Source: Thermodesulfovibrionales bacterium (GTDB taxonomy: Bacteria > Nitrospirota > Thermodesulfovibrionia > Thermodesulfovibrionales > SM23-35). From it: 64,000 bases of DNA. The notes beneath the pieces are model-generated. The model saw nothing but the letters and a program-made list of their open reading frames with translations. It had not been told where the DNA came from and searched no databases. The stretch covers positions 192,001 through 256,000 of the forward strand of contig CAVQRT010000031.1 in NCBI GenBank assembly GCA_963715195.1, read 5' to 3'. Both the position numbers and the translations under genes were made by a program. Positions 10,060-64,000 of this stretch are shown here, piece after piece (position 1 is the stretch's first letter; each line of letters begins with the position of its first letter).

Positions 10060-11400
10060 TTATCTTGAATATCCGGTCTCGCCGTGCTGCGAAATATCGA
10101 GTCCGTGCAGTTCTGATTCCTGGTCAATCCTCAGGCCAATAAATGTATCGATTATTTTCAGGAGAATCACGGTCGCAATAAATGAATAGACTGCGGTAAC
10201 TGCCATTGCAGTCATCTGTGATGCAAGCAACTGGTGATTCCCGAACAACAATCCATTGCTTCCTGCGGGGTTGATGAGTGTCGATGCAAAGATACCCGTT
10301 GCAAAGGTCCCCACAAATCCGCCAACACCGTGCACACCGAAGGCATCAAGAGAATCGTCATAACCGAGATTTTTCTTCATGTTCAGGGAAAGATAGCAAA
10401 CTGCACCTGCTGCGAGACCTATGATTAAGGAAGACATAGGGCTCACAAATCCCGCAGCCGGAGTTATTGTCGCAAGTCCTGCAATCGAACCGGTTGCAGC
10501 ACCAAACATTGTCGGTTTTCCTCTGTGTATCCATTCGATGAGCACCCAGATAAGCGTGGCTGAGACGGCAGAAGTATGCGTTGCGACAAATGCCATGGTA
10601 CTTAACGTGCCGGCGGACAGAGCGCTTCCCGCATTGAATCCGAACCATCCAAACCAGAGCAGACCTGCGCCCAGAACGGTCATGGGAAGATTATGCGGGT
10701 ACATGGCTTCCTGTAAATATCCTTTTCTTTTTCCGATGATCAATGCTGCGGCAAGGGCTGAAATTCCCGATATAAGATGAACAACAATACCACCGGCGAA
10801 ATCAAGGGCTCCCATCTTTTTCAACCATCCACCGGTACCCCAAACCCAGTGAGCGACCGGGTCGTAGACAAGGGTTGACCACAGGAGTATGAACAGGAGA
10901 TACGCTGAAAATTTCATTCGCTCCGCGAATGCCCCGGTGATGAGTGCAGGTGTAATTACCGCAAACATTGCCTGGTACATCATAAATGCGATGTGCGGAA
11001 CAGTCGGCGCATAATCAGGATTCGGCTCGATTCCGACACCATTCAATCCGATCCAGTCAAGGCTTCCGATGATCCCGTTTATGTCAGGGCCAAACGAGAG
11101 ACTGTATCCAACCAGTATCCACTGAACGCTTATCAGCGCAATCGCAACGAAACTCTGCATGATCGTACCGAGCACATTTTTTCCCCTCACCATGCCACCG
11201 TAAAAGAGCGCGAGCCCCGGAGTCATGAGCATCACGAGAGCTGTTGATATCAGTATCCAGGCAGTATCTCCCGTATCAACTGACGCTGCAGTCACAGCAG
11301 GAGCAACGTGCGTTGTTGCACCCGGCAGGTCTTCCCCAGACACAATGACCGGGAGAACCAGGAAAATGACTATTGAAAGGAAAATAAAGAATTTCGCCAT
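10060..11400 (-). CDS. amtB: Ammonium transporter Amt (copy 1)
   Basis: [42 protein letters not shown] (twin His); start moved to ATG 11400 after AGGAGG. Confidence 0.97.
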   Translation of the reverse strand: MAKFFIFLSIVIFLVLPVIVSGEDLPGATTHVAPAVTAASVDTGDTAWILISTALVMLMTPGLALFYGGMVRGKNVLGTIMQSFVAIALISVQWILVGYSLSFGPDINGIIGSLDWIGLNGVGIEPNPDYAPTVPHIAFMMYQAMFAVITPALITGAFAERMKFSAYLLFILLWSTLVYDPVAHWVWGTGGWLKKMGALDFAGGIVVHLISGISALAAALIIGKRKGYLQEAMYPHNLPMTVLGAGLLWFGWFGFNAGSALSAGTLSTMAFVATHTSAVSATLIWVLIEWIHRGKPTMFGAATGSIAGLATITPAAGFVSPMSSLIIGLAAGAVCYLSLNMKKNLGYDDSLDAFGVHGVGGFVGTFATGIFASTLINPAGSNGLLFGNHQLLASQMTAMAVTAVYSFIATVILLKIIDTFIGLRIDQESELHGLDISQHGETGYSR

Positions 11401-11439
11401 ATCCCCTCCTTTTGAATTATGATTCCAGGGAGAGCATAT

Positions 11440-11472
11440 ATCTAAAAACATGCCAGTTGTAACACATTGATT
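11440..11472 (-). promoter_or_regulatory. sigma54-type promoter (GG-N10-GA) with IHF site
   Basis: CTGGCATG-TTTT-TAGAT on minus strand; AATCAATGTGTTA (WATCAAN4TTR) at 11460-11472. Confidence 0.65.
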
Positions 11473-11516
11473 TATAGCCATAATTTAATGCGCGTTTTCT
11501 TTGTTGCCGAAAAATA

Positions 11517-11531
11517 CTACACTTTTGTCGG
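11517..11531. promoter_or_regulatory. Putative activator site CTACA-N4-TGTCG
   Basis: CTACACTTTTGTCGG, same motif as 11755-11785 and 14873-14905. Confidence 0.55.
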
Positions 11532-11601
11532 TAGAGATTTGTTCATCACTACTCCATGTCTCTGATAGATCTATTTAAATACTTGGCATGAGTCCATGTT
11601 A

Positions 11602-11673
11602 TGTCATCCTCCGGCTTGACTGGGGGATCCAGAATGTATTGAAAACAATGGATTCCCGCCTTCGCGGGAATGA
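11602..11673. repeat. Palindromic repeat family A (GTCATT/CC...GGAATGAC double hairpin)
   Basis: TGTCATCCTCCGGCTTGACTGGGGGATCCAG...TGGATTCCCGCCTTCGCGGGAATGA; weak outer inverted repeats at about 11562-11586 and 11690-11714. Confidence 0.75.
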
Positions 11674-11754
11674 TAACTCTCTGGAAAAACCATGGGTTAC
11701 AAACAGACTATGTGGCGCCATTTTCTTAAATCCATAGGATATATGCAGAAATCA

Positions 11755-11785
11755 TACAATTTTGTAGCTTCTACAATTTTGTCGG
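11755..11785. promoter_or_regulatory. Tandem putative enhancer (2x ACA-N4-TGT)
   Basis: TACAATTTTGTAG-ctt-CTACAATTTTGTCGG; near-identical inverted copy of 14873-14903. Confidence 0.65.
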
Positions 11786-11854: not shown

Positions 11855-11944
11855 TGTCATTGTCCGGCTTGACCGGACAATCCAGTAACGCGATCCTTGC
11901 GAGATTGAAAACACTGAATTCCCCGATCAAGTCGTGGAATGACA
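11855..11944. repeat. Palindromic repeat family A
   Basis: TGTCATTGTCCGGCTTGACCGGACAATCCAG...CTGAATTCCCCGATCAAGTCGTGGAATGACA just after glnK. Confidence 0.8.
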
Positions 11945-11971
11945 GAAAACCTAAATCTTAATGGATAATAC

Positions 11972-12366
<395 letters not shown>

Positions 12367-12405: not shown

Positions 12406-13770
12406 TTACAGGCTGTATGCCTTTTCACCGTGCTGGCTTTCATCAAGACCGGTGATTTCATGTTCCTCGTGGACCCTGATACCGGTTATCGCTTTCACGA
12501 TCCCGAAGATAATCAGAGTAGCGACAGCACTGTAAACCATAGTTACTACAACAGCGATAATCTGGGTCAGGAGCTGCCCGGGATTACCATACAGAAGCCC
12601 TTTCCCAAGTTCGTTAACCGAAGGATCCGCAAATATCCCCGTCAGTATAGCACCCAGGATTCCACCGACTCCATGGATTCCGAATGCATCGAGTGAATCG
12701 TCATACCCGAGTTTTGGCTTGATCGCTGCGACAGCAAAGTACGGAACGATACCCGCCAGAAGCCCGATGATGAGAGCGCCATTGATATTCACGAAACCAG
12801 CAGCAGGGGTGATCGCCACAAGTCCTGCAACCGCTCCTGAGGCAAGTCCAAGAACAGTCGGTTTTTTCGTATGCATCCATTCCACAAACATCCACGAGAT
12901 AGCTGCCATTGCAGCTGCAGAGTTGGTATTAATGAATGCTGCCCCAGCAAGTCCGTTTGCTGCAACGGCAGATCCTGCGTTGAATCCGAACCACCCGAAC
13001 CAGAGCAGTCCGGCACCGGTTACCACAAGGGTCAGATTGCTTGGTTTCAGGGCTGCCTCTTTTCTCTTGCCAAGCATCAGGGCTCCCATAAGGGCTGCGA
13101 TACCTGCGTTGATATGCACGACGGTTCCACCGGCAAAGTCCAGTGCCCCCAGTTGCGCAAGGAAGCCACCGCCCCATACCCAGTGGGCTACGGGAACATA
13201 CACAAGGGTCATCCACAGTATCGAGAAGAGCACCCATGCAGAAAATTTCATTCTTTCGATAAACGCACCACTTGCGAGGGCCACGGTTATCGCTGCAAAG
13301 GTCATCTGGAATACAACGAATATGTATTCAGGAATAGTCCCCGAGAGGCTGTTGAATTCTACCCCTGCAAGCATGAGTTTTTCTGTCCCGCCAATGATCC
13401 CCTTTATGTCAGTGCCAAAAACGAGGGTATACCCGTATACCACCCAGAGGATGCTCACAATACAGTATGTTACAAAGGACATCGCCATGGTATTCAGGGT
13501 GTCCTTCCGCTTTGCAAGTCCTCCGTAAAAGAGCGCGAGTCCCGGTAGTGTCATGAGCATGACCAGGGCGGTTGCCACAATCATCCATGCAGTGTCACCG
13601 GTATCAATTTTAGCCGGTTCTGCTGCCACCGCTGCTTCTGGAGCAGGCTGAGCAGGCGATGCCTGCTCAGCTGCCGGAGGGGTAGGAGGGTTTGTTACCA
13701 CCTCTTCTGCAAACACTATCCCACTGATAATTGTTAAAAATAAAAATATGAGAATAGTAAATCGTTTCAT
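12406..13770 (-). CDS. amtB: Ammonium transporter Amt (copy 2)
   Basis: Signal peptide, Pro/Ala linker, [30 protein letters not shown]. Confidence 0.97.
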
Positions 13771-14547: not shown

Positions 14548-14584
14548 TTTCTGACCTCCTGTTTTTTTCTTTAAATTTTGCAGG

Positions 14585-14610
14585 GCAACCCCGAAAGCAT
14601 TCGGGGCTGC
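14585..14610 (-). other. RNA hairpin between HTH gene and porin gene
   Basis: GCAGCCCCGAA-UGCU-UUCGGGGUUGC pairs fully (with G.U) only on the minus-strand transcript; no U-tract. Confidence 0.55.
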
Positions 14611-14612
14611 GA

Positions 14613-14789
14613 CTACCTATTATTTCCCGTCTCCTTTCTTATGTTGTATTTCCTGATCTTGTATCCGATCATCCTTTCGGTTATGCCGAGTTTCCCTGCT
14701 GCCCTCGACATAATCCAATTGGACTCCTTCAATGCATTCAGTATTTCTTCCTGTTCAATTTCCTGGACTTTGTCTGTCAGATATCCCAT
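14613..14789 (-). CDS. 58-aa stand-alone Fis-type (NifA C-terminal-like) HTH protein; absent from ORF track
   Basis: Hand translation MGYLTDKVQEIEQEEILNALKESNWIMSRAAGKLGITERMIGYKIRKYNIRKETGNNR; AGGT 7 nt before ATG; aligns with the C-terminus of 57328-58851. Confidence 0.85.
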   Translation of the reverse strand: MGYLTDKVQEIEQEEILNALKESNWIMSRAAGKLGITERMIGYKIRKYNIRKETGNNR

Positions 14790-14811
14790 CGTGAATACCT
14801 GTCATGATTAT

Positions 14812-14845
14812 ATCCAAAACCGTGCCAAGAGGTAACATATTGATT
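14812..14845 (-). promoter_or_regulatory. sigma54-type promoter (GG-N10-GA) with IHF site
   Basis: TTGGCACG-GTTT-TGGAT; AATCAATATGTTA at 14833-14845. Confidence 0.8.
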
Positions 14846-14872: not shown

Positions 14873-14905
14873 CGACAAAATTGTATGAAGCTACAAATAT
14901 GTAGG
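14873..14905. promoter_or_regulatory. Tandem putative enhancer (2x ACA-N4-TGT)
   Basis: CGACAAAATTGTATGAAGCTACAAATATGTAGG, about 50-80 bp upstream of the -24 box. Confidence 0.7.
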
Positions 14906-16054: not shown

Positions 16055-16318
16055 TTAGCGGGGTAGAAATATCATGTTGTCACCGTTAATGATTAGTTCA
16101 ACGTCTAAAACTTTAGCGATACCAAAGGCGACATCAAGTGGAATCCGTATTATACCCTTTTCATATTTATAAATTTGCTGTTGGGCGATTTCTTCAGATA
16201 AGCCGATAGTGATGCCGAGATAATATTGAGATATGCCTCTATTCTCGCGGATTTCCTTTAATAGGGACCCTATATTTCTATTTATATCATCGTCGACTTT
16301 TATAATTCTGGATTCCAT
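16055..16318 (-). CDS. XRE-family HTH regulator (copy 1)
   Basis: IGSLLKEIRENRGISQ..LG...QQQIYKYEKG..RIP. Confidence 0.85.
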   Translation of the reverse strand: MESRIIKVDDDINRNIGSLLKEIRENRGISQYYLGITIGLSEEIAQQQIYKYEKGIIRIPLDVAFGIAKVLDVELIINGDNMIFLPR

Positions 16319-16940: not shown

Positions 16941-17243
16941 TTAGCGGGGTATCAGTATCATCTTATTGCTGTTGAAGATAAGATCAATGCTTAGGGTTTT
17001 AGCTATTTTAACGGTGATGTCGATTGGAATACGAATTATGCCTTTTTCATATTTGTAGATATGTTGCTGCGCAATGTCCTCCGAGAGACCAATAGCTATA
17101 CCCAGATCATGTTGAGATATCCCCCTGGCCTCGCGGAACTCCCTAAAATATGTTCCTATGCGGTTGTTTATCTCATTTCTATCTTCAACTTCAACAATTT
17201 TGGTTTCCAAAGGTGGTAACGAGCGGGCGCTTTTTCTGTTCAT
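16941..17243 (-). CDS. XRE-family HTH regulator (copy 2)
   Basis: REARGISQHDLG...QQHIYKYEKGIIRIP; close paralog of 16055-16318. Confidence 0.85.
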   Translation of the reverse strand: MNRKSARSLPPLETKIVEVEDRNEINNRIGTYFREFREARGISQHDLGIAIGLSEDIAQQHIYKYEKGIIRIPIDITVKIAKTLSIDLIFNSNKMILIPR

Positions 17244-23419: not shown

Positions 23420-23704
23420 ATGAAAAGGGAAAATACATGGTTTGTTTTCGGGCTAGCGCTAATTGTGGGGGTGTTTGCTATTGTGCTATTCAAAGGGCCA
23501 ACGACAGAATTGACCGAAACAGCATTGATTGAAAGCCAGCAGCATTACGAGGAGGCACAGAAGGCTTACGATTCTGGTAATCTTGAGTTAGCATTGGCAC
23601 ATTTGGAGTCGATAAACGAGAGGACGCCTGCCTGGTATGAAAGTCGGGATTTTCATTGGCAAATTAAAGCGGAAATAAACACATATGCGAGAGCACGAGA
23701 ATGA
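23420..23704 (+). CDS. Membrane-anchored small protein with TPR-like helical domain
   Basis: N-terminal TM, then HYEEAQKAYDSGNLELALAHLESI; strong RBS; paralogous to the C-terminus of the next gene. Confidence 0.8.
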   Translation: MKRENTWFVFGLALIVGVFAIVLFKGPTTELTETALIESQQHYEEAQKAYDSGNLELALAHLESINERTPAWYESRDFHWQIKAEINTYARARE

Positions 23705-24276
23705 TTGGTATGCAAAAGTTAAGCAGAATAGTAAAAAACAGTATTGTTAATAAGGGGATGGACATGACGCTAGAAAAATGGCTTGAGGCCCATAGTATAT
23801 CCATGATAGACTTCGAGGGTATGTCTGGGGTTCCTTATCAGAGAATTTCAGAGCACATAAGGTTAAATAAGCCTCTATCTGAAAAACATGTCATTAAGGT
23901 ATTACAGACAACAAAATGTGATGTGTCCCCTGACATGTTAAGGCCAAGCCTCAAGCCTATTTTTCAACTTATAAACACCAAAAAATGGGTTTTAGTGCGA
24001 AGAACAACTGCATTTGCTTTATCGCTGGCGATTGTGCTTGTGACATTCGCTGCTATAATATTCCAATCACCTGCTGATTTTTCCGATTCTGTGCTAGTCG
24101 AAAGTCAGCGTCACTACGAAGAGGCCAAGAATGCCTTCAGCAATAATGACCTCGAGTTTGCATTGTCGCATCTTGAGGCGATAGAAAAGAAGACCCCCGT
24201 CTGGTACGAGAGTAGAGAGCTTCACTGGCAAGTTAAAGAGGAGTTGAACACGTATGCGCGGAAAGAGAGCAAATAA
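23701..24276 (+). CDS. Cro/YdaS-like HTH - TM - TPR-like domain protein (putative membrane-tethered regulator)
   Basis: MTLEKWLEAHSIS..F...SGVPYQRISEHI...VSPDMLRP, central TM, C-terminal domain like 23420-23704; start may be 23758 or 23764. Confidence 0.7.
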   Translation: MIGMQKLSRIVKNSIVNKGMDMTLEKWLEAHSISMIDFEGMSGVPYQRISEHIRLNKPLSEKHVIKVLQTTKCDVSPDMLRPSLKPIFQLINTKKWVLVRRTTAFALSLAIVLVTFAAIIFQSPADFSDSVLVESQRHYEEAKNAFSNNDLEFALSHLEAIEKKTPVWYESRELHWQVKEELNTYARKESK

Positions 24277-57327: not shown

Positions 57328-58851
57328 CTATTGAAGAGCTGTCGGTGCGGACAGGCCGTATTTCTTGATCTTATACCCGATCTGTCTGGGTGTGAGGCCG
57401 GTCATGCGGGCTGCCTTTGCCTGAACCCAGCCTGTTTTTTCGAGCGCATCGAGGATGCTCGACTTCTCGATGTCCTCAATGCCTGCCCTGAGGGACTCTT
57501 TCTGAAGCATATCTTCAGGTGAAGGCAATTTCAGATTGATCGGAAGGTCTGAAGCCCTTATCGTTTCGCGGCCTGACATGACGACAAGTCTTTCTATAGT
57601 GTTTTCGAGTTCCCTTACATTTCCGGGCCAGGCATAGTCAATCAATGCGTGAAGCGCCTCAGAAGAGATTGAAACGTTCTTGTGATTTTCTTCATTGAAA
57701 CGCCTGAGGAAAAAATCAACGAGCAGCGGAGTATCTTCCTTTCTTTCCCTGAGGGGCGGCATAAATATCGGAACAACATTCAGCCTGTAGAACAGATCCT
57801 CCCTGAATTTTCCTTTTGCAACGAGTTCTTCAAGATTTCTGCTCGTTGCCGCAATCAGCCTGATATCAACTTTGATTGTTCTCTCGCCGCCGACCCTCTC
57901 GAATTCCCTCTCCTGGAGCACGCGTAGGATTTTTGGCTGAAGATTCAGGGGGAGGTCTCCAACTTCATCAAGCAGAATCGTCCCGTGGTGAGCAAGTTCA
58001 AATCTGCCTTTTCTCACATTCATGGCGCCGGTGAATGCACCTTTCTCGTGCCCGAAAAGCTCTGATTCAAGCAGTCCTTCCGGTATGGACGCGCAATTGA
58101 ATTTGACAAACGGCGCCTTTGCCCTGGGGCTCATATAATGGATGGACTTCGCGATCAGTTCCTTCCCGGTCCCGCTTTCTCCATATAGAATGACCGTTGC
58201 CCTGGAGTCTGCGACGCGGTGAACGGCTTCGAATACTTCCTTCATTTTGTCTGAGGTTCCGATGATATTCGGCAGGCTGTACTTGCCCTTCAGCTGCAGC
58301 TTCAGGCTCTCTTTTTCCTCTTCGGAAGCCCGGTAATGCTTCCAGAGCATAACATACTGGGCAATAATGGAGCCGATGATTTCGAGGACCCTGACATCCT
58401 CGTCGACGGTTATTGCCTGATCTTTGAAGATTCTGTCAACGCTGAGGACTCCGATTGCTTCTCCCTTGAATGAGATCGGTACGCAGAGGAAAGAAATGCC
58501 GCTCTTCCCAATCCTCGATCCCGTCCTGTTCAGAAATAACGGCTCCTCACCGACGTTTGGAATAACCATGGGTGTTCCCTTCCCAATCACCCGTCCGACG
58601 ATTCCCTCCCCGATTCTGTATTTTCCCCGTTCGATCTGTTCCCTGGTGAGCCCATGAGCAGCAACAATCTTCAACTCCCTGGTGGTGTGGTCAAGGAGAA
58701 AAACAGACCCGCGCTCCATCTCGAGAAATTCACCAAGAACACGCATGGTCTTCGAGAGGTTTTTCTCGAGTTCAAACGAGGAATTGAGAACCCTGCTCAC
58801 TTCGAGGAGGGCTGAAAGGATTCTATTTTCTCGTGCTAATGACTCTGCCAC
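57328..58851 (-). CDS. nifA: NifA-like GAF-AAA+-HTH sigma54 activator
   Basis: GAF ([19 protein letters not shown]), GAFTGA, C-terminal [17 protein letters not shown] NifA signature; GTG start 58851; no nif structural genes in window. Confidence 0.85.
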
Positions 58852-58853
58852 CG

Positions 58854-61304
58854 CTATACGTTTTCCACCATTTCCCAGACGCCGCATGGACAGATGCCCG
58901 CGCAGAATCCGCAGCCGATGCACTTGTCATCGTCAACGACATACTCATATGAGCCGTCTTTGTGCTCGATCCTGCTGATTGCCCCCCAGTAGCAGGTAGC
59001 CTCACACATGTGGCAATCCCGGCAGGTGGCACAGGACATGCATTTGTTTGCCTCCTGTTCGGGAGACGTGAAGTCTCCCCGGCAGACATCATAATATTCC
59101 GTTCTGATACGTTCGTAGGGAATAACCTGTTTGATTTCGGGCGAGCGCGGGGCATGCATAAGCTGGTAGTGAATTGTCTCCGCAGCGGTCCTGCCCTGTC
59201 CGATTGCATGGGTAACGAGTCCAAGCCGCGTGGCGTCGCCGATCGCAAAGACTTTTACGTCAGATGTCTGTCCAATTTCGTTGACCGCAATCCATCCTCT
59301 TTCGGTATGGATGTTCGGCGGGAGGAAATCGAGAATCGGGATATCACCAACGGACATGATAACGACGTCAGCTTCAAGAAATGTCCCGTCCTTAAAAAAC
59401 AGTTTCTTTTCATTGTGGTCATATCTGTCCGTGAATCTCGGCCAGAGTATCTGTGTTCCCTTCGCAAGAGCAGTATCCATTTCCTTTCCGGATGCAGCCG
59501 GTTTCTGGATGTCCACAGCAATGACAGACTCAGCCCCGCAATTGAATGCCTGGGATGCAACATCCATCCCCACGTTGCCGGCCCCGATGATAACAACCTT
59601 CTTTTCATGCAGGGTTGGGATATCACCAAAGTTAATCCCCTTCAGAAAGTCATATGCCGAGAGGATGTGCTCTGAACCGGGGAACGGGAAAATCCGGGGT
59701 TTATGAGCACCGCAGGACACGACGACGATCTCGTGGGACGCATATATTTCCTCGAATTTCTTCTGATCTGTTCTCGCGTTCAGATGGACCGAAACCCCTA
59801 TCTCCCTGAACCGTGACAGTTCTTTCTGGAGTACATCCTGCGGAAGCCGTTCCCTCGGTATACAGAGTTCAAGCTTTCCGCCAAGCTTGTCCGTTGCTTC
59901 ATACAGATCGACTGTGTGGCCTTTGAGGCCGAGCTGCCAGGCGGCGCTCAGCCCTGCCGGTCCCCCTCCGATGACTGCTATGGTATGTCCCGTGGAATCA
60001 GCCTTTTCCGGTGCCGGAAGGTCAAGGGCGAGTCTGCCAAGCTGATCGATGCCCAACGGTTTGTCGAGCTTTGCCCTCGTGCAGCTCTGCATGCAGAGGT
60101 TCGGGCATATCTGACCGCATACGGTTGCCGGGAGCGGACTGTACTGAAGCACGAGTTCCAGGGCTTCATGGAGTTTCCCCTGTCTGATGAGCGAGGCCCT
60201 CTTGTGTGAAGGAATTTGTGTCGGGCAATTGTATGCGCAGGGTGGCAGGTATTTTTCATTTGCCCACACAGGTCTGTTCCTTCTCTCTTTCCCGGTTGTT
60301 ATATACGGCAGTATGGTCAGGTCGTGATCTATGTAAGGCGCAAATATCCCGCCTGCACCGACCTCTTTTTCCCATGTATTCTTCCTGAAATCGGAAGTCG
60401 AAATGCTAAACCATCGCCGGGCACGCTTCTCCTGAGGGGTAAATGCGATGAACTTTTTCCAGTCATCCGAAGAACGGGTCAGTTCTCTGTAATAGGACAT
60501 TCTGTCAATGGCTTTAAGATAGGGCTTCATTTGTGTTTTGAGCCATTCCCAGTCCTGCGGAGTGAGGTCGAGAAGTTTTACATCCCGTTCACTGTATCCC
60601 TGAATCGGGCCTCTGAAATAGACAGTGCCGCCCACCATTCCGACGCAAGGCCGGTAACCGAGGATGTTCTGAGGGTTCCTTGAATCAACACCGCAGACAA
60701 CGGCGATACCGCCCGCCTTGAATTCGGCGAACGAATCCCCGACATTCCTGAAATACCAGGACTGCGGCGGGTCGAAACGGGGATTGTGTTTCGTCATCGT
60801 ATCGCAGCGTGCTCCGCCACTTCCCTGAACGTAGAGAATTCCCTGTGCTGCGGCATTGAAGGCTCCGTTCGTTACGTCTCCCAATACTGTTATGTTTGCC
60901 CCGCAATTGATCCACCCGATATCATCGGAAGCACTCCCGTTGACAACGATTTCGGTGCCGAACATCCCCATGCTCCCGAGCCTCTGACCAACAGGCCCGT
61001 CCACGGTAATTTTGACGGTCTCTCCCCTCGGCCAGATTCTCCCTCCGATGCCGTGCTGCCCATCGGCCAGGATGTGCAAAGCCCGGGCCCCATCCCTGAC
61101 CGCCTGCTGTATTTCCTCCTCCAGGATCCGGGACCGAACACGCTTCCCGCCGACGACGCCGTGAATGGTTATGATTTTCTGTTCTGTTTTCTGGAAATCT
61201 TCTTTTTCTTCTTGAGCAGCAGTGAGTGCAGGCCGAATGTTTTTTGTTTTTTTCTTCCCGTCTGTTCCCCGCTGCCTACTGCCCACTGGTTTTTTAGCAC
61301 GCAT
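58854..61304 (-). CDS. Glutamate synthase GXGXG domain fused to GltD-like FAD oxidoreductase and ferredoxin
   Basis: [54 protein letters not shown]. Confidence 0.9.
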
Positions 61305-62955
61305 AGCTTATTTCCAATCTGTCTGCCATCGCTTTATCATCGATGCTCAATCCGTCCGACATCCCGATGGGCAGTTCGGTGCTTCTTCCCATGGGAGCGA
61401 AGATTTTTTTCAGTTCGACATTGGCTGACTTGAATACTTCGACAACACGCTCGGCAACCTTGTCGGAATCCAGTCTCCGGTAAAGTTTTGGGTCCTGGGT
61501 CGTTATGCCTCTCGGGCATTTCCCCGTATTGCAGAGGTTGCAGCGATTATATTCGTCACCGAAGCAGTTTGCGGTTGCCTGCATAACATATTTCCCGATT
61601 GATACCGCCGATGCGCCGAGCATGATGAGGGCAGCAGCATTTGCCGCCAAATTCCCTTTCTTTGCAACACCTCCGGCCGCAATCAATGGCAGTTCATTCT
61701 GTTTGCCCTGTTTGACGAGGTCGAGGTAGCATTCCCGCAGATTCGATACTATCGGATGCCCCATCTTGTCTATCGAGACATTGTAGGCAGCTCCGGTTCC
61801 GCCGTCTTCACCATCGATCGACAGAGCTGCTGCATAAGGATTCCTCGCGAGATTATTGAGAACAGCGCGTGCCGTTTTGGTTCCGGAAATCTTCGGGTAA
61901 ACAGGCACACGGAATCCCCAGGCCATTGACATCGACTGGATCATCTTCGCAACGGCCTCTTCAATAGAGTATTTCGTCTGATGGGTGGGGGGTGATGCGA
62001 GGTCGACAAACTGCGGGACCCCGCGAATGCTTGCGATAAGCCTCATGACCTTCTGGGCCATGAGGAGACCGCCGTCACCGGGTTTTGCGCCCTGACCATA
62101 CTTGATCTCGATGGCAGCGGGGTCCTCGACCATATCAGGTATAGCATGGATGATCTCATCCCATCCGAAATACCCTGAAGCGATCTGAATGGTCATGTAT
62201 TTCAGAAATCTTGATTTCAATAGCCTTGGCGGTACCCCGCCTTCACCGGTGCACATGACAACCGGCATGTTCTCAACTTCATTGAGATAGGCGACTCCCA
62301 TGGCAAGGCCCTCCCACATCGGAGGCGACAATGCCCCCATGGACATGCTTCCGATCATGATGGGGAATATTTCACGGACCGGGGGGATAAATGTATCAGT
62401 CGGATGTTCAACTCCGAGTGTACCGTTCGTTGTAATCAGGGGCAGTTCTTCGGGCGGCAGGATTCTTCCCAGAAGGGTCCTTACCCGGAATTCATGTCTC
62501 CCTGCATCGAGGGCAGGATCTGTGAGCATGGAGATTCTCGTGAATTTGAGTCTGTCGAGCGTCGATATCGCAGGGTCATTCCTTCTTCCACCTCGTTTAT
62601 AGCCTTCTCCGCCCCTGTTTTTGAAATGAAGAAATTTGTTCGTTGGGTTATACTCAGGTTCTATCGCATCATTCGGGCATACAAGGGTGCATGCGCCGCA
62701 GCCGGTACAGGCCCGCTCTATCTCCGTCACCTGTTCAACGACATGGGTGATTCTCCGGACGGTTGCCGGTTCTGGAACAGGGCCTTCCGACTGCACAAGG
62801 CGCTGAAGTTTGACTGCCGGTACGATAGCCTTTACCGGACAGACCGCCGTGCAACTGCCGCATCGCTTGCACCGGTCATCCCTCCAGCGGACGATATAGG
62901 GAAATTCCTTCAGCGAGAGCTGATGATTGTGATCTAATGTTGCAGCTGGTTCCAT
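61294..62955 (-). CDS. gltB: Glutamate synthase FMN-binding subunit with N-terminal ferredoxin (GltB2-like)
   Basis: CKRCGSC..CP, MSMGALS, TGEGG, EIKYGQGAKPGDGG, CNTGKCPRGITTQ. Confidence 0.92.
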   Translation of the reverse strand: MEPAATLDHNHQLSLKEFPYIVRWRDDRCKRCGSCTAVCPVKAIVPAVKLQRLVQSEGPVPEPATVRRITHVVEQVTEIERACTGCGACTLVCPNDAIEPEYNPTNKFLHFKNRGGEGYKRGGRRNDPAISTLDRLKFTRISMLTDPALDAGRHEFRVRTLLGRILPPEELPLITTNGTLGVEHPTDTFIPPVREIFPIMIGSMSMGALSPPMWEGLAMGVAYLNEVENMPVVMCTGEGGVPPRLLKSRFLKYMTIQIASGYFGWDEIIHAIPDMVEDPAAIEIKYGQGAKPGDGGLLMAQKVMRLIASIRGVPQFVDLASPPTHQTKYSIEEAVAKMIQSMSMAWGFRVPVYPKISGTKTARAVLNNLARNPYAAALSIDGEDGGTGAAYNVSIDKMGHPIVSNLRECYLDLVKQGKQNELPLIAAGGVAKKGNLAANAAALIMLGASAVSIGKYVMQATANCFGDEYNRCNLCNTGKCPRGITTQDPKLYRRLDSDKVAERVVEVFKSANVELKKIFAPMGRSTELPIGMSDGLSIDDKAMADRLEISYAC

Positions 62956-64000
62956 ACGCTGACCTCCTCCGCATCTGGCTTGACGATTACCATGTCGTAT
63001 TTCATAGGAAAGATATCACCTGATTTGTCCCTTTTGGGGATGGAGCTGTCGAGGCCGCATTCCTCGGACATCAGTGCATATTTCCCCTTAGTCCCGCCAA
63101 CGACTCCGGGTCTCAGTTTCTTTGCGTCGTGCGCCATGAAACAGTTGCCGTTGGGGGTAAATCCGATAACCATATTCGGGCCGTCGATGCAGAGCGGCCT
63201 TAAGGATTGTTTGATAAGCCGCAAGGCTTTTTTGTCCTGTCTGGGTTCGATTTCAGAATCTTTCAGCGGTGTAATGACATCTTTATAGTAGGTGAGAGGG
63301 AATCCCAACTGCCGTACGGTATAGTGCAGAATATGGGTGAAAACCTCACTGTCACTGTTATACCCCATATACCCCGGGAAGCCCCTGCTCATCAGGAACT
63401 CCCTGATGGGCACAAAGGCAGTATTCTCTCCGTTTGTCATAGAGCAAAATCCCTGGATGAAAAAAGGATGGCAGGCATAGAGATAGATCGCATAATTTGT
63501 GTTCTGCCTTCCCTGAGCAAAGATAATTTTTGCTTTGAGGCCGCCCTTGTCGAGACCAAAGAATTCAGCTACCTGAAGCGGGTCCCCGACTTCCTTCAGC
63601 GTCAGTACGTCGGGATAGAATGAGAAAACGAAGATTGATTCATCCTGTTCTCCGAGCTTTCGCAGCGTAAGGCGGATATTCATCAGGAGATCTTCTTTTT
63701 CCTTTGTCGGTTTGTATTTGTAGGAAAAGGGATAATCGTATGCCCGCGCGAAATAATGGTCGCGGGGCTGAATCCCCTTAACGGATTTTGTTTTCGGAGC
63801 CCAGATGTCTTTTAACTGAAATCCTGCCTTGTCCATGAAGTCGTCAAGAATCTTAGCCCCGGATTTTGAGCATATGCCTGAAAGAATCGGGTATCCTTTC
63901 AGGTGCTCAAAATGCCCCCCAAGGTCTTTGAGTGTGAGACCAAGACCTGAGCCGTCGTGGCCCTCCTTCATGGTCTCAAGGGCAAGGATATTCTCCATCG
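62934..64000 (-). CDS. gltB: Glutamate synthase amidotransferase subunit (GltB1-like), 5' end outside window
   Basis: GHDGSG, RQNTN, ACHPF, NGEN, SDSE, DGP, KKLRP class-II GATase motifs. Confidence 0.88.
   Translation of the reverse strand, partial: MENILALETMKEGHDGSGLGLTLKDLGGHFEHLKGYPILSGICSKSGAKILDDFMDKAGFQLKDIWAPKTKSVKGIQPRDHYFARAYDYPFSYKYKPTKEKEDLLMNIRLTLRKLGEQDESIFVFSFYPDVLTLKEVGDPLQVAEFFGLDKGGLKAKIIFAQGRQNTNYAIYLYACHPFFIQGFCSMTNGENTAFVPIREFLMSRGFPGYMGYNSDSEVFTHILHYTVRQLGFPLTYYKDVITPLKDSEIEPRQDKKALRLIKQSLRPLCIDGPNMVIGFTPNGNCFMAHDAKKLRPGVVGGTKGKYALMSEECGLDSSIPKRDKSGDIFPMKYDMVIVKPDAEEVSVWNQLQH

Follow-up and report, generated by a model that had tools for sequence, protein, structure and literature searches.

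The window (the whole 64,000 nt stretch of DNA analysed) carries on its minus strand a short gene for a stand-alone helix-turn-helix (HTH) protein, which lies behind a sigma-54-type promoter and is followed by genes of ammonium uptake. The elements at this locus, in the direction of transcription, are as follows.

14873-14904, no strand assigned: two palindromic ACA-N4-TGT sites in tandem (14873-14886 and 14891-14904, 18 bp apart), the predicted activator enhancer
14833-14845, minus strand: IHF-type site between enhancer and promoter
14812-14827, minus strand: sigma-54 -24/-12 promoter (TGGCAC at 14827-14822, -12 dinucleotide GA at 14814-14813)
14797-14800, minus strand: weak SD-like AGGT ahead of the small ORF
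14613-14789, minus strand: 58-aa stand-alone Fis-type HTH protein, ATG start, TAG stop
14631-14635, minus strand: SD-like AGGAG in the tail of this ORF, not followed by a conserved start codon
14585-14610, minus strand: GC-rich hairpin 3′ of the stop codon
13783-14547, minus strand: next gene, coding for 254 aa and judged porin-like from its signal-peptide-like start and terminal Phe
12406-13770, minus strand: ammonium transporter amt1 (PF00909)
11972-12310, minus strand: PII protein (GlnK/GlnB; PF00543)

The 58-aa protein matches Pfam HTH_8 at 44.7 bits (gathering cut-off 22) and is made up of helices B, C and D of a NifA-type DNA-binding domain, with neither helix A nor an AAA+ domain. It reaches 31 bits with TIGR01817 (cut-off 528.85), contains no AAA+ module with a GAFTGA loop, and lacks the helix A and N-terminal arm preceding the HTH that we take to define Fis. 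Its start codon is positioned 3 residues ahead of helix B in 16/17 aligned small-protein sequences. A preliminary description of this DNA had placed here a small ORF with its own ATG, SD-like AGGT and stop behind the -12 box, and this is confirmed, the ATG lying 24 nt past the -12 dinucleotide. Its term 'unannotated' was, however, too strong, as the exact 58-aa protein is present in NCBI/ENA gene calls, although members of its cluster bear automatic names only in public annotation. Across five metatranscriptome runs only 6-18 % of the locus words are present. Amongst four placed on the locus, one contig of 151 nt (X3, depth 2, one mismatch) spans 14556-14706, covering the end of the ORF and the hairpin; as such contigs give neither strand nor level, and DNA carry-over is possible, it is not counted as RNA evidence.

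With regard to conservation, a short open frame at 52-77 % identity is found in 21 of 40 relatives; beyond these 21, two other short matches are activator fragments and one is a truncated copy on a short contig. All 21 relatives with the small gene fall within the 31 that possess a NifA-type activator, and none within the nine without an activator match, a co-occurrence count amongst relatives that are not independent and assemblies that are incomplete. Selection acts on the protein: pN is below pS in 171/171 pairs (45 codons, 19 sequences, with L020 left out as it is shortened by a stop), and in the 52 unsaturated pairs omega has a median of 0.096 and a maximum of 0.21, which denotes strong purifying selection, whilst third codon positions are free (majority base 0.62 vs 0.89-0.91). 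The in silico checks for non-conservation, neutral decay or a full-length activator at this position likewise gave nothing against the preliminary description. The 58-aa ORF is thus a real, old gene.

Homologues were sought using a HMMER scan over 1.84 billion representatives. The GTDB scan confirmed 477 stretches, and amongst the best 80 of these, 78 are titled as Nitrospirota lineages and 2 as uncultured bacterium. When 250 genomes were sampled evenly across the phylum, about 49 of the 91 belonging to the same class held stand-alone copies (E ≤ 1e-20), as did 1 of the 159 outside it, and the neighbours in the atlas are unnamed HTH_8 clusters, mostly from Nitrospirota. In five genomes (G001, of the same genus, as well as G015, G019, G023 and G034) the enhancer, promoter and operon persist although the small gene is absent, with visible remnants of it in two of them (G015 and G023). 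The small gene is therefore dispensable, and its product would be a tuner rather than an essential part.

The parent family of this domain is represented at the far end of the window, in an operon of glutamate-synthase-like genes.

58854-63998, minus strand: glutamate-synthase-like genes upstream of the activator, with the promoter just past the window edge
57328-58923, minus strand: GAF-AAA+-HTH activator (TIGR01817 nifA, 578.9 bits vs 528.85), last gene of the glutamate-synthase-like operon

The best match of the 58-aa protein in the genome is the C-terminus of this activator (ungapped, 42 % over 48 aa, E 4e-10), so that the gapless alignment reported previously is borne out; the next enhancer-binding protein of the genome follows at E 6e-4. 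In a tree of 71 domains and 49 columns, the 30 stand-alone domains cluster together (98/93) within the NifA-type activators, which establishes descent from the DNA-binding domain of such activators, with a weakly placed exact sister: the nearest neighbours are five activators, from a different class of the phylum, in whose recognition helix Met is already present (82/94, weak). One clade of 30 stand-alone domains argues for a single ancient split and not for repeated truncation. The idea that the small protein is a copy of the activator that induces it holds as far as descent from NifA-type domains is concerned, but is best put more softly for this particular activator, since the clade is an ancient paralogous one. 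A truncated activator pseudogene can be rejected: the DNA upstream is promoter and not AAA+ remnant, its frame being closed by stops, and an omega of about 0.1, the single clade and the conserved start do not describe a truncation scar; from the upstream DNA, the preliminary description had likewise concluded that it does not look like one.

The promoter ahead of the small gene is the top-scoring sigma-54-type site of the genome, using a matrix trained on other genomes. From standard spacing, transcription is predicted to start near 14801, leaving a 5′ leader of only ~12 nt. In the GTDB loci (78 parsed of 80, themselves the best 80 of 477 stretches), a TGGCAY box lies 27-73 nt (median 39) ahead of the start codon in 75 of 78; at least one ACA-N4-TGT site, mostly at -57 and -76, accompanies 67 of those 75, so that the full anatomy of sigma-54 box and activator-type enhancer is seen in 67/78 parsed loci. 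An SD-like 4-mer stands ahead of the start in 53 of the same 78 and is absent in 25, which, together with the short leaders, suggests that expression may be low. A strict match to the IHF-type consensus, which we take to be WATCAA-N4-TTR, is present in 25 of 75 related promoters, and no other conserved HTH-type site was seen in the aligned promoters. Both sigma-54 promoters of the window have GA rather than GC at -12 (14814-14813 and 11442-11441), as do 10 of 66 distinct related promoters.

Downstream, the order is porin-like gene, amt, PII, a second amt and a glnA-like gene (glnA named by inspection); no Pfam or NCBIfam match was obtained for the 254-aa porin-like protein. The second transporter has regulatory elements of its own.

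11754-11784, no strand assigned: second tandem pair of ACA-N4-TGT sites, about 300 bp upstream of the amt2 promoter
11440-11530, minus strand: another sigma-54 promoter, with one proximal site (11517-11530), driving amt2
10060-11481, minus strand: ammonium transporter amt2 (PF00909), as a mechanical ORF

The true amt2 start is probably near 11400, past the promoter, and no small HTH gene lies behind this promoter. Repeat-like palindromic inserts at 11540-11750 and 11860-11950 put about 230 bp between the tandem sites and the amt2 promoter. The small gene usually comes first in a sigma-54 operon of porin-like, amt and PII genes, preceded by tandem ACA-N4-TGT sites. Within 4 kb downstream, amt is found in 54 of the 78 parsed loci, only a porin-like gene in 9, only PII or glnA in 3, and no reference gene in 12, some of which head amino-acid-permease-like and PP2C-like genes (below cut-offs). 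Several genomes have two or three copies at different operons, and some copies (L013, L183, L190) sit inside operons without a promoter of their own. In L183 (G041:C16), which is outside the class, two such copies alternate with amt genes in one operon; in G024 a PII-like gene precedes a copy; and in L067 the small HTH and the porin-like gene are joined in one frame of 343 aa, which may be a sequencing or assembly artefact. Within 16055-16318, 16941-17243 and 23420-24276 the window also holds short paralogous pairs, namely two Xre-type HTH proteins (the first being PF01381) and two small membrane proteins with a common C-terminal motif.

Tandem ACA-N4-TGT pairs occur exactly three times in the 2.8 Mb genome, compared with none for a control pattern, and a matrix scan agrees with this count. 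All three are at nitrogen genes: before the small gene, before amt2 and before the glutamate-synthase-like operon, the last being located as follows.

G000:C31:256111-256144 (loci L177/L191): third tandem pair, 110 bases past window position 64000

From co-occurrence, we infer that the activator is the reader of these sites. In five genomes whose activators bear Met, a search for enhancers gave 10 matches against 11 for the control pattern, and so no statistical signal; only two of these matches precede nitrogen genes.

The third pair differs in layout, its sites being 20 bp apart and without a sigma-54 box. Its proximal site overlaps a TTGACA with TAnnnT 17-18 nt further on, a sigma-70-type call made by eye from TTGACA-N17/18-TAnnnT across relatives; in the host genome, the glutamate-synthase promoter was not amongst the hits of a simple sigma-70 scanner. 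Of the 30 loci, 29 were readable: 19 of these belong to the family, 14 of them with such a pair, whilst amongst the 10 from other families one has a single site. A pair over the -35 box is arranged as expected for steric autorepression, and since this requires no more than a DNA-binding domain, a protein limited to DNA binding could also cut activator synthesis. The operator is, however, kept where the small gene has been lost (G001, G019, G023) and missing in carriers of the gene (G004, G010, G020), which suggests that it serves the activator first, with the small protein at most an added occupant. One operator carrier, G008, has no activator match, and its contig ends ~4 kb downstream.

The leader of the glutamate-synthase operon holds further elements. 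A conserved inverted repeat of ~18 bp, ACGGYAA...TTRCCGT, lies just past the -10 box, at the transcription start, in most relatives (L191-L220); it occurs with or without activator sites and may serve a different regulator as operator or form an RNA hairpin. Where the -35 operator is missing, the same leader instead contains a conserved terminator-like hairpin, GCGTC...GACGC followed by a U-tract (L196, L199, L204, L206, L210, L213, L216 and L220), a candidate attenuator or riboswitch platform. Rfam at gathering level returned nothing in nine glutamate-synthase loci and L001.

At the 3′ end of the small gene, the hairpin noted in the preliminary description does exist (region z -3.3), although the stabilising role proposed for it on a short transcript does not stand. 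Its exact pattern recurs in only 1 of 20 loci, no U-tract was found behind it and terminator-like sites number zero, and near-identical protein variants of 72 aa read through it; for these reasons it is rejected both as terminator and as stabiliser. The tail of the ORF has a composition of its own, with GGAGG in 56 of 73 distinct tails and skewed Glu and Lys codons (GAG:GAA is 83:19 in the tails vs 208:225 in the core). This GGAGG mostly has no start codon behind it and is the SD of the next gene in a few loci. A second small ORF behind it was considered and rejected, as the reading frame is not conserved.

The recognition helix had been described as nearly identical to that of the activator. 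This is accurate for R, I, G, Y and K, but not for two fixed differences (TERMIGYK vs TPRQIGYK). Comparing 89 small proteins with 26 activators, T37, R39, I41, G42, Y43, K44, K47 and Y48 agree, and the basic DNA-reading face (R39, Y43, K47) is invariant in 89/89 small proteins. Residue 27, by contrast, is Met in 82/89 small proteins and Gln in 22/26 activators, residue 38 is Glu in 89/89 and Pro in 22/26, and residue 40 is Met in 83/89 and Gln in 25/26. The net charge of helices C-D is nonetheless similar (+5.6 for the small protein vs +5.7 for the activator). According to the available portions of PMC11407668, an alanine scan of LuxO found S423, I425, Y426, R427 and K428 necessary for DNA binding, and P422 and T424 tolerant. 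Aligned by motif spacing, R39, I41, G42, Y43 and K44 correspond to the former and the differing positions 38 and 40 to the latter; positions 39 and 41-45 thus align with essential LuxO residues, and position 27 with a hydrophobic, essential Ile (same portions of that source). Full-length activators bearing Glu (G034) or Met (G061) are found with the same site at the same spacing at a nitrogen-gene promoter, with one example each. A site specificity common to small protein and activator is accordingly likely on these alignments, whilst the selected differences at Glu38, Met27 and Met40 could reflect a different site or partner.

Modelled as a homodimer through helix B, the small protein scores 0.52 (best control 0.00), with 100 % of contacts shared between runs and a pLDDT of at least 84; the mark for this score is reached by 20 of 30 solved pairs and by 1 of 23 single chains. 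Like dimers have been solved, of the NtrC/Fis type, and the model may thus reflect memory. The interface (L4, E12, I16, L34-I36) is equally conserved in the activator (L 24/26, E 26/26, I 24/26). Taken alone, a NifA domain devoid of helix A is monomeric and has a Kd of 20 uM, as given in the available part of PMC10590331, and the small protein, which also lacks helix A, would need a high copy number or gained affinity.

Taken together, these features incline us, with some reserve, towards delayed negative feedback by a DNA-binding-only paralogue of the activator. On nitrogen shortage, the GAF-AAA+-HTH activator would bind the tandem ACA-N4-TGT sites and fire the sigma-54 promoter, as the conserved promoter anatomy suggests, and the first operon product would be the 58-aa HTH protein. 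This is modelled to dimerise via helix B and would read the same ACA-N4-TGT sequence, of which the tandem sites at 14873-14904 are its predicted target; unable to activate sigma-54, it would displace the activator from the amt enhancers or dilute it there. In only some of the family, its occupation of the -35-box sites may additionally lower expression of the glutamate-synthase/activator operon. The net effect would be a cap, or a pulse shape, on the expression of ammonium-uptake genes. More tentatively, and with doubt outweighing confidence, the arrangement may amount to a bacterial ICER-like circuit, in which an ancient DNA-binding-only paralogue induced by a sigma-54 activator closes the loop twice (at the enhancers and at the sigma-70 promoter) and heads several nitrogen-uptake operons class-wide.

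The same residues can be read differently. Rather than competing for DNA, the small protein might pair with the activator's DNA-binding domain via helix B and spoil or retune its tethering, with its own DNA binding secondary. The equally conserved interface makes mixed pairs sterically plausible, and the weak affinity of free NifA-type domains makes plain competition hard, yet the invariant DNA-reading face would be needless for a pure poison, and we consider this explanation unlikely. Similarly improbable, in our estimation, is that the protein leaves the activator unrestrained and acts as a sigma-54-induced small repressor or Fis-like bender with its own specificity, directed at other genes or at looping. 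The fixed Glu38, Met40 and Met27 would fit such a role, and there are parallels in Fis, which arose from the NtrC DNA-binding domain and took a new role (PMC11407668, available portions), and in XrpA, a sigma-54-induced repressor of other genes belonging to another family than the small HTH (PMC11999139, available portions). Against it, the promoters show no second motif, the positions that matter in LuxO are the same as in the activator, and an IHF-type site already supplies the bend.

If the ORF worked chiefly in cis, as a translated leader with an SD-like tail that shields the mRNA downstream or feeds it, or if it were a relic being lost, this would agree with the constant cotranscription with uptake genes, the GGAGG and GAG bias of the tails, and the repeated deletions with their remnants. 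Selection at the amino-acid level with free third positions, HTH residues that are invariant across the class, and copies within operons lacking a promoter of their own all run counter to this, and we hold it to be very unlikely. Feedback through the shared sites remains our preferred reading, and under it the locus can be set against known systems.

Amongst solved structures, NifA-type C-terminal domains (TIGR01817; PDB 2m8g and 9qq6) are the best PDB matches of the small-family profile (E 1e-12 and 9e-9). The small protein shares their WVxARAA...R.IGYK pattern and helices B-C-D, without helix A. Unlike NifA, it stands alone without GAF or AAA+ domains, has the fixed Met27, Glu38 and Met40, and would use the site ACA-N4-TGT as opposed to the TGT-N10-ACA quoted for nifH. 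A nif context is rejected, as nifH over cut-off is absent from the host genome. Fis, as Morett and Bork reportedly proposed in 1998, is a stand-alone protein derived from the NtrC DNA-binding domain; it comprises about 98 aa, has helix A and plays a global nucleoid role. The small protein, in contrast, is about 60 aa long, traces back to NifA-type domains and remains within the regulon of its parent. Fis is nevertheless a precedent for a freed HTH_8 domain of an enhancer-binding protein (PMC11407668, available portions), and the family, if correctly interpreted, would offer a snapshot of how a Fis-like protein originates from activators. The VnfA1, VnfA2 and VnfA3 proteins of Azotobacter are also paralogues with common promoters and mutual tuning, but are full-length and act via mixed AAA+ rings (PMC9542535, available portions). 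Such a small protein is unmentioned in the available portions of PMC6615313 and PMC9866876, and no description of the family or circuit was found in the literature searched, which was largely open-access main text. The analysis further defines a compact nitrogen regulon for a mostly uncultured group, comprising a site, two sigma-54 promoters and one autorepressed sigma-70 promoter (all predicted).

In function, the proposed role resembles that of the anti-activators NifL, FleN, PspA and HrpV, which exert negative control over an enhancer-binding protein; these, however, bind the regulatory or AAA+ part of the activator and are not related to it. In the case of FleN and PspA, the activator that they hold in check also induces them, but to our knowledge none of the four is a DNA-binding-only paralogue. 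Closest in logic are the eukaryotic ICER and microProteins, small single-domain paralogues that are induced by, and restrain, their parent, although they have no homology to the small protein, and many microProteins keep dimerisation and lose the DNA-binding part. If the preferred reading is true, the family would provide a 58-residue tool to cap NifA-type output. Moreover, whilst known brakes on sigma-54 activators target ATPase or sensor domains, a brake derived from the activator's own DNA-binding domain, and selected class-wide, would represent a different principle of control.
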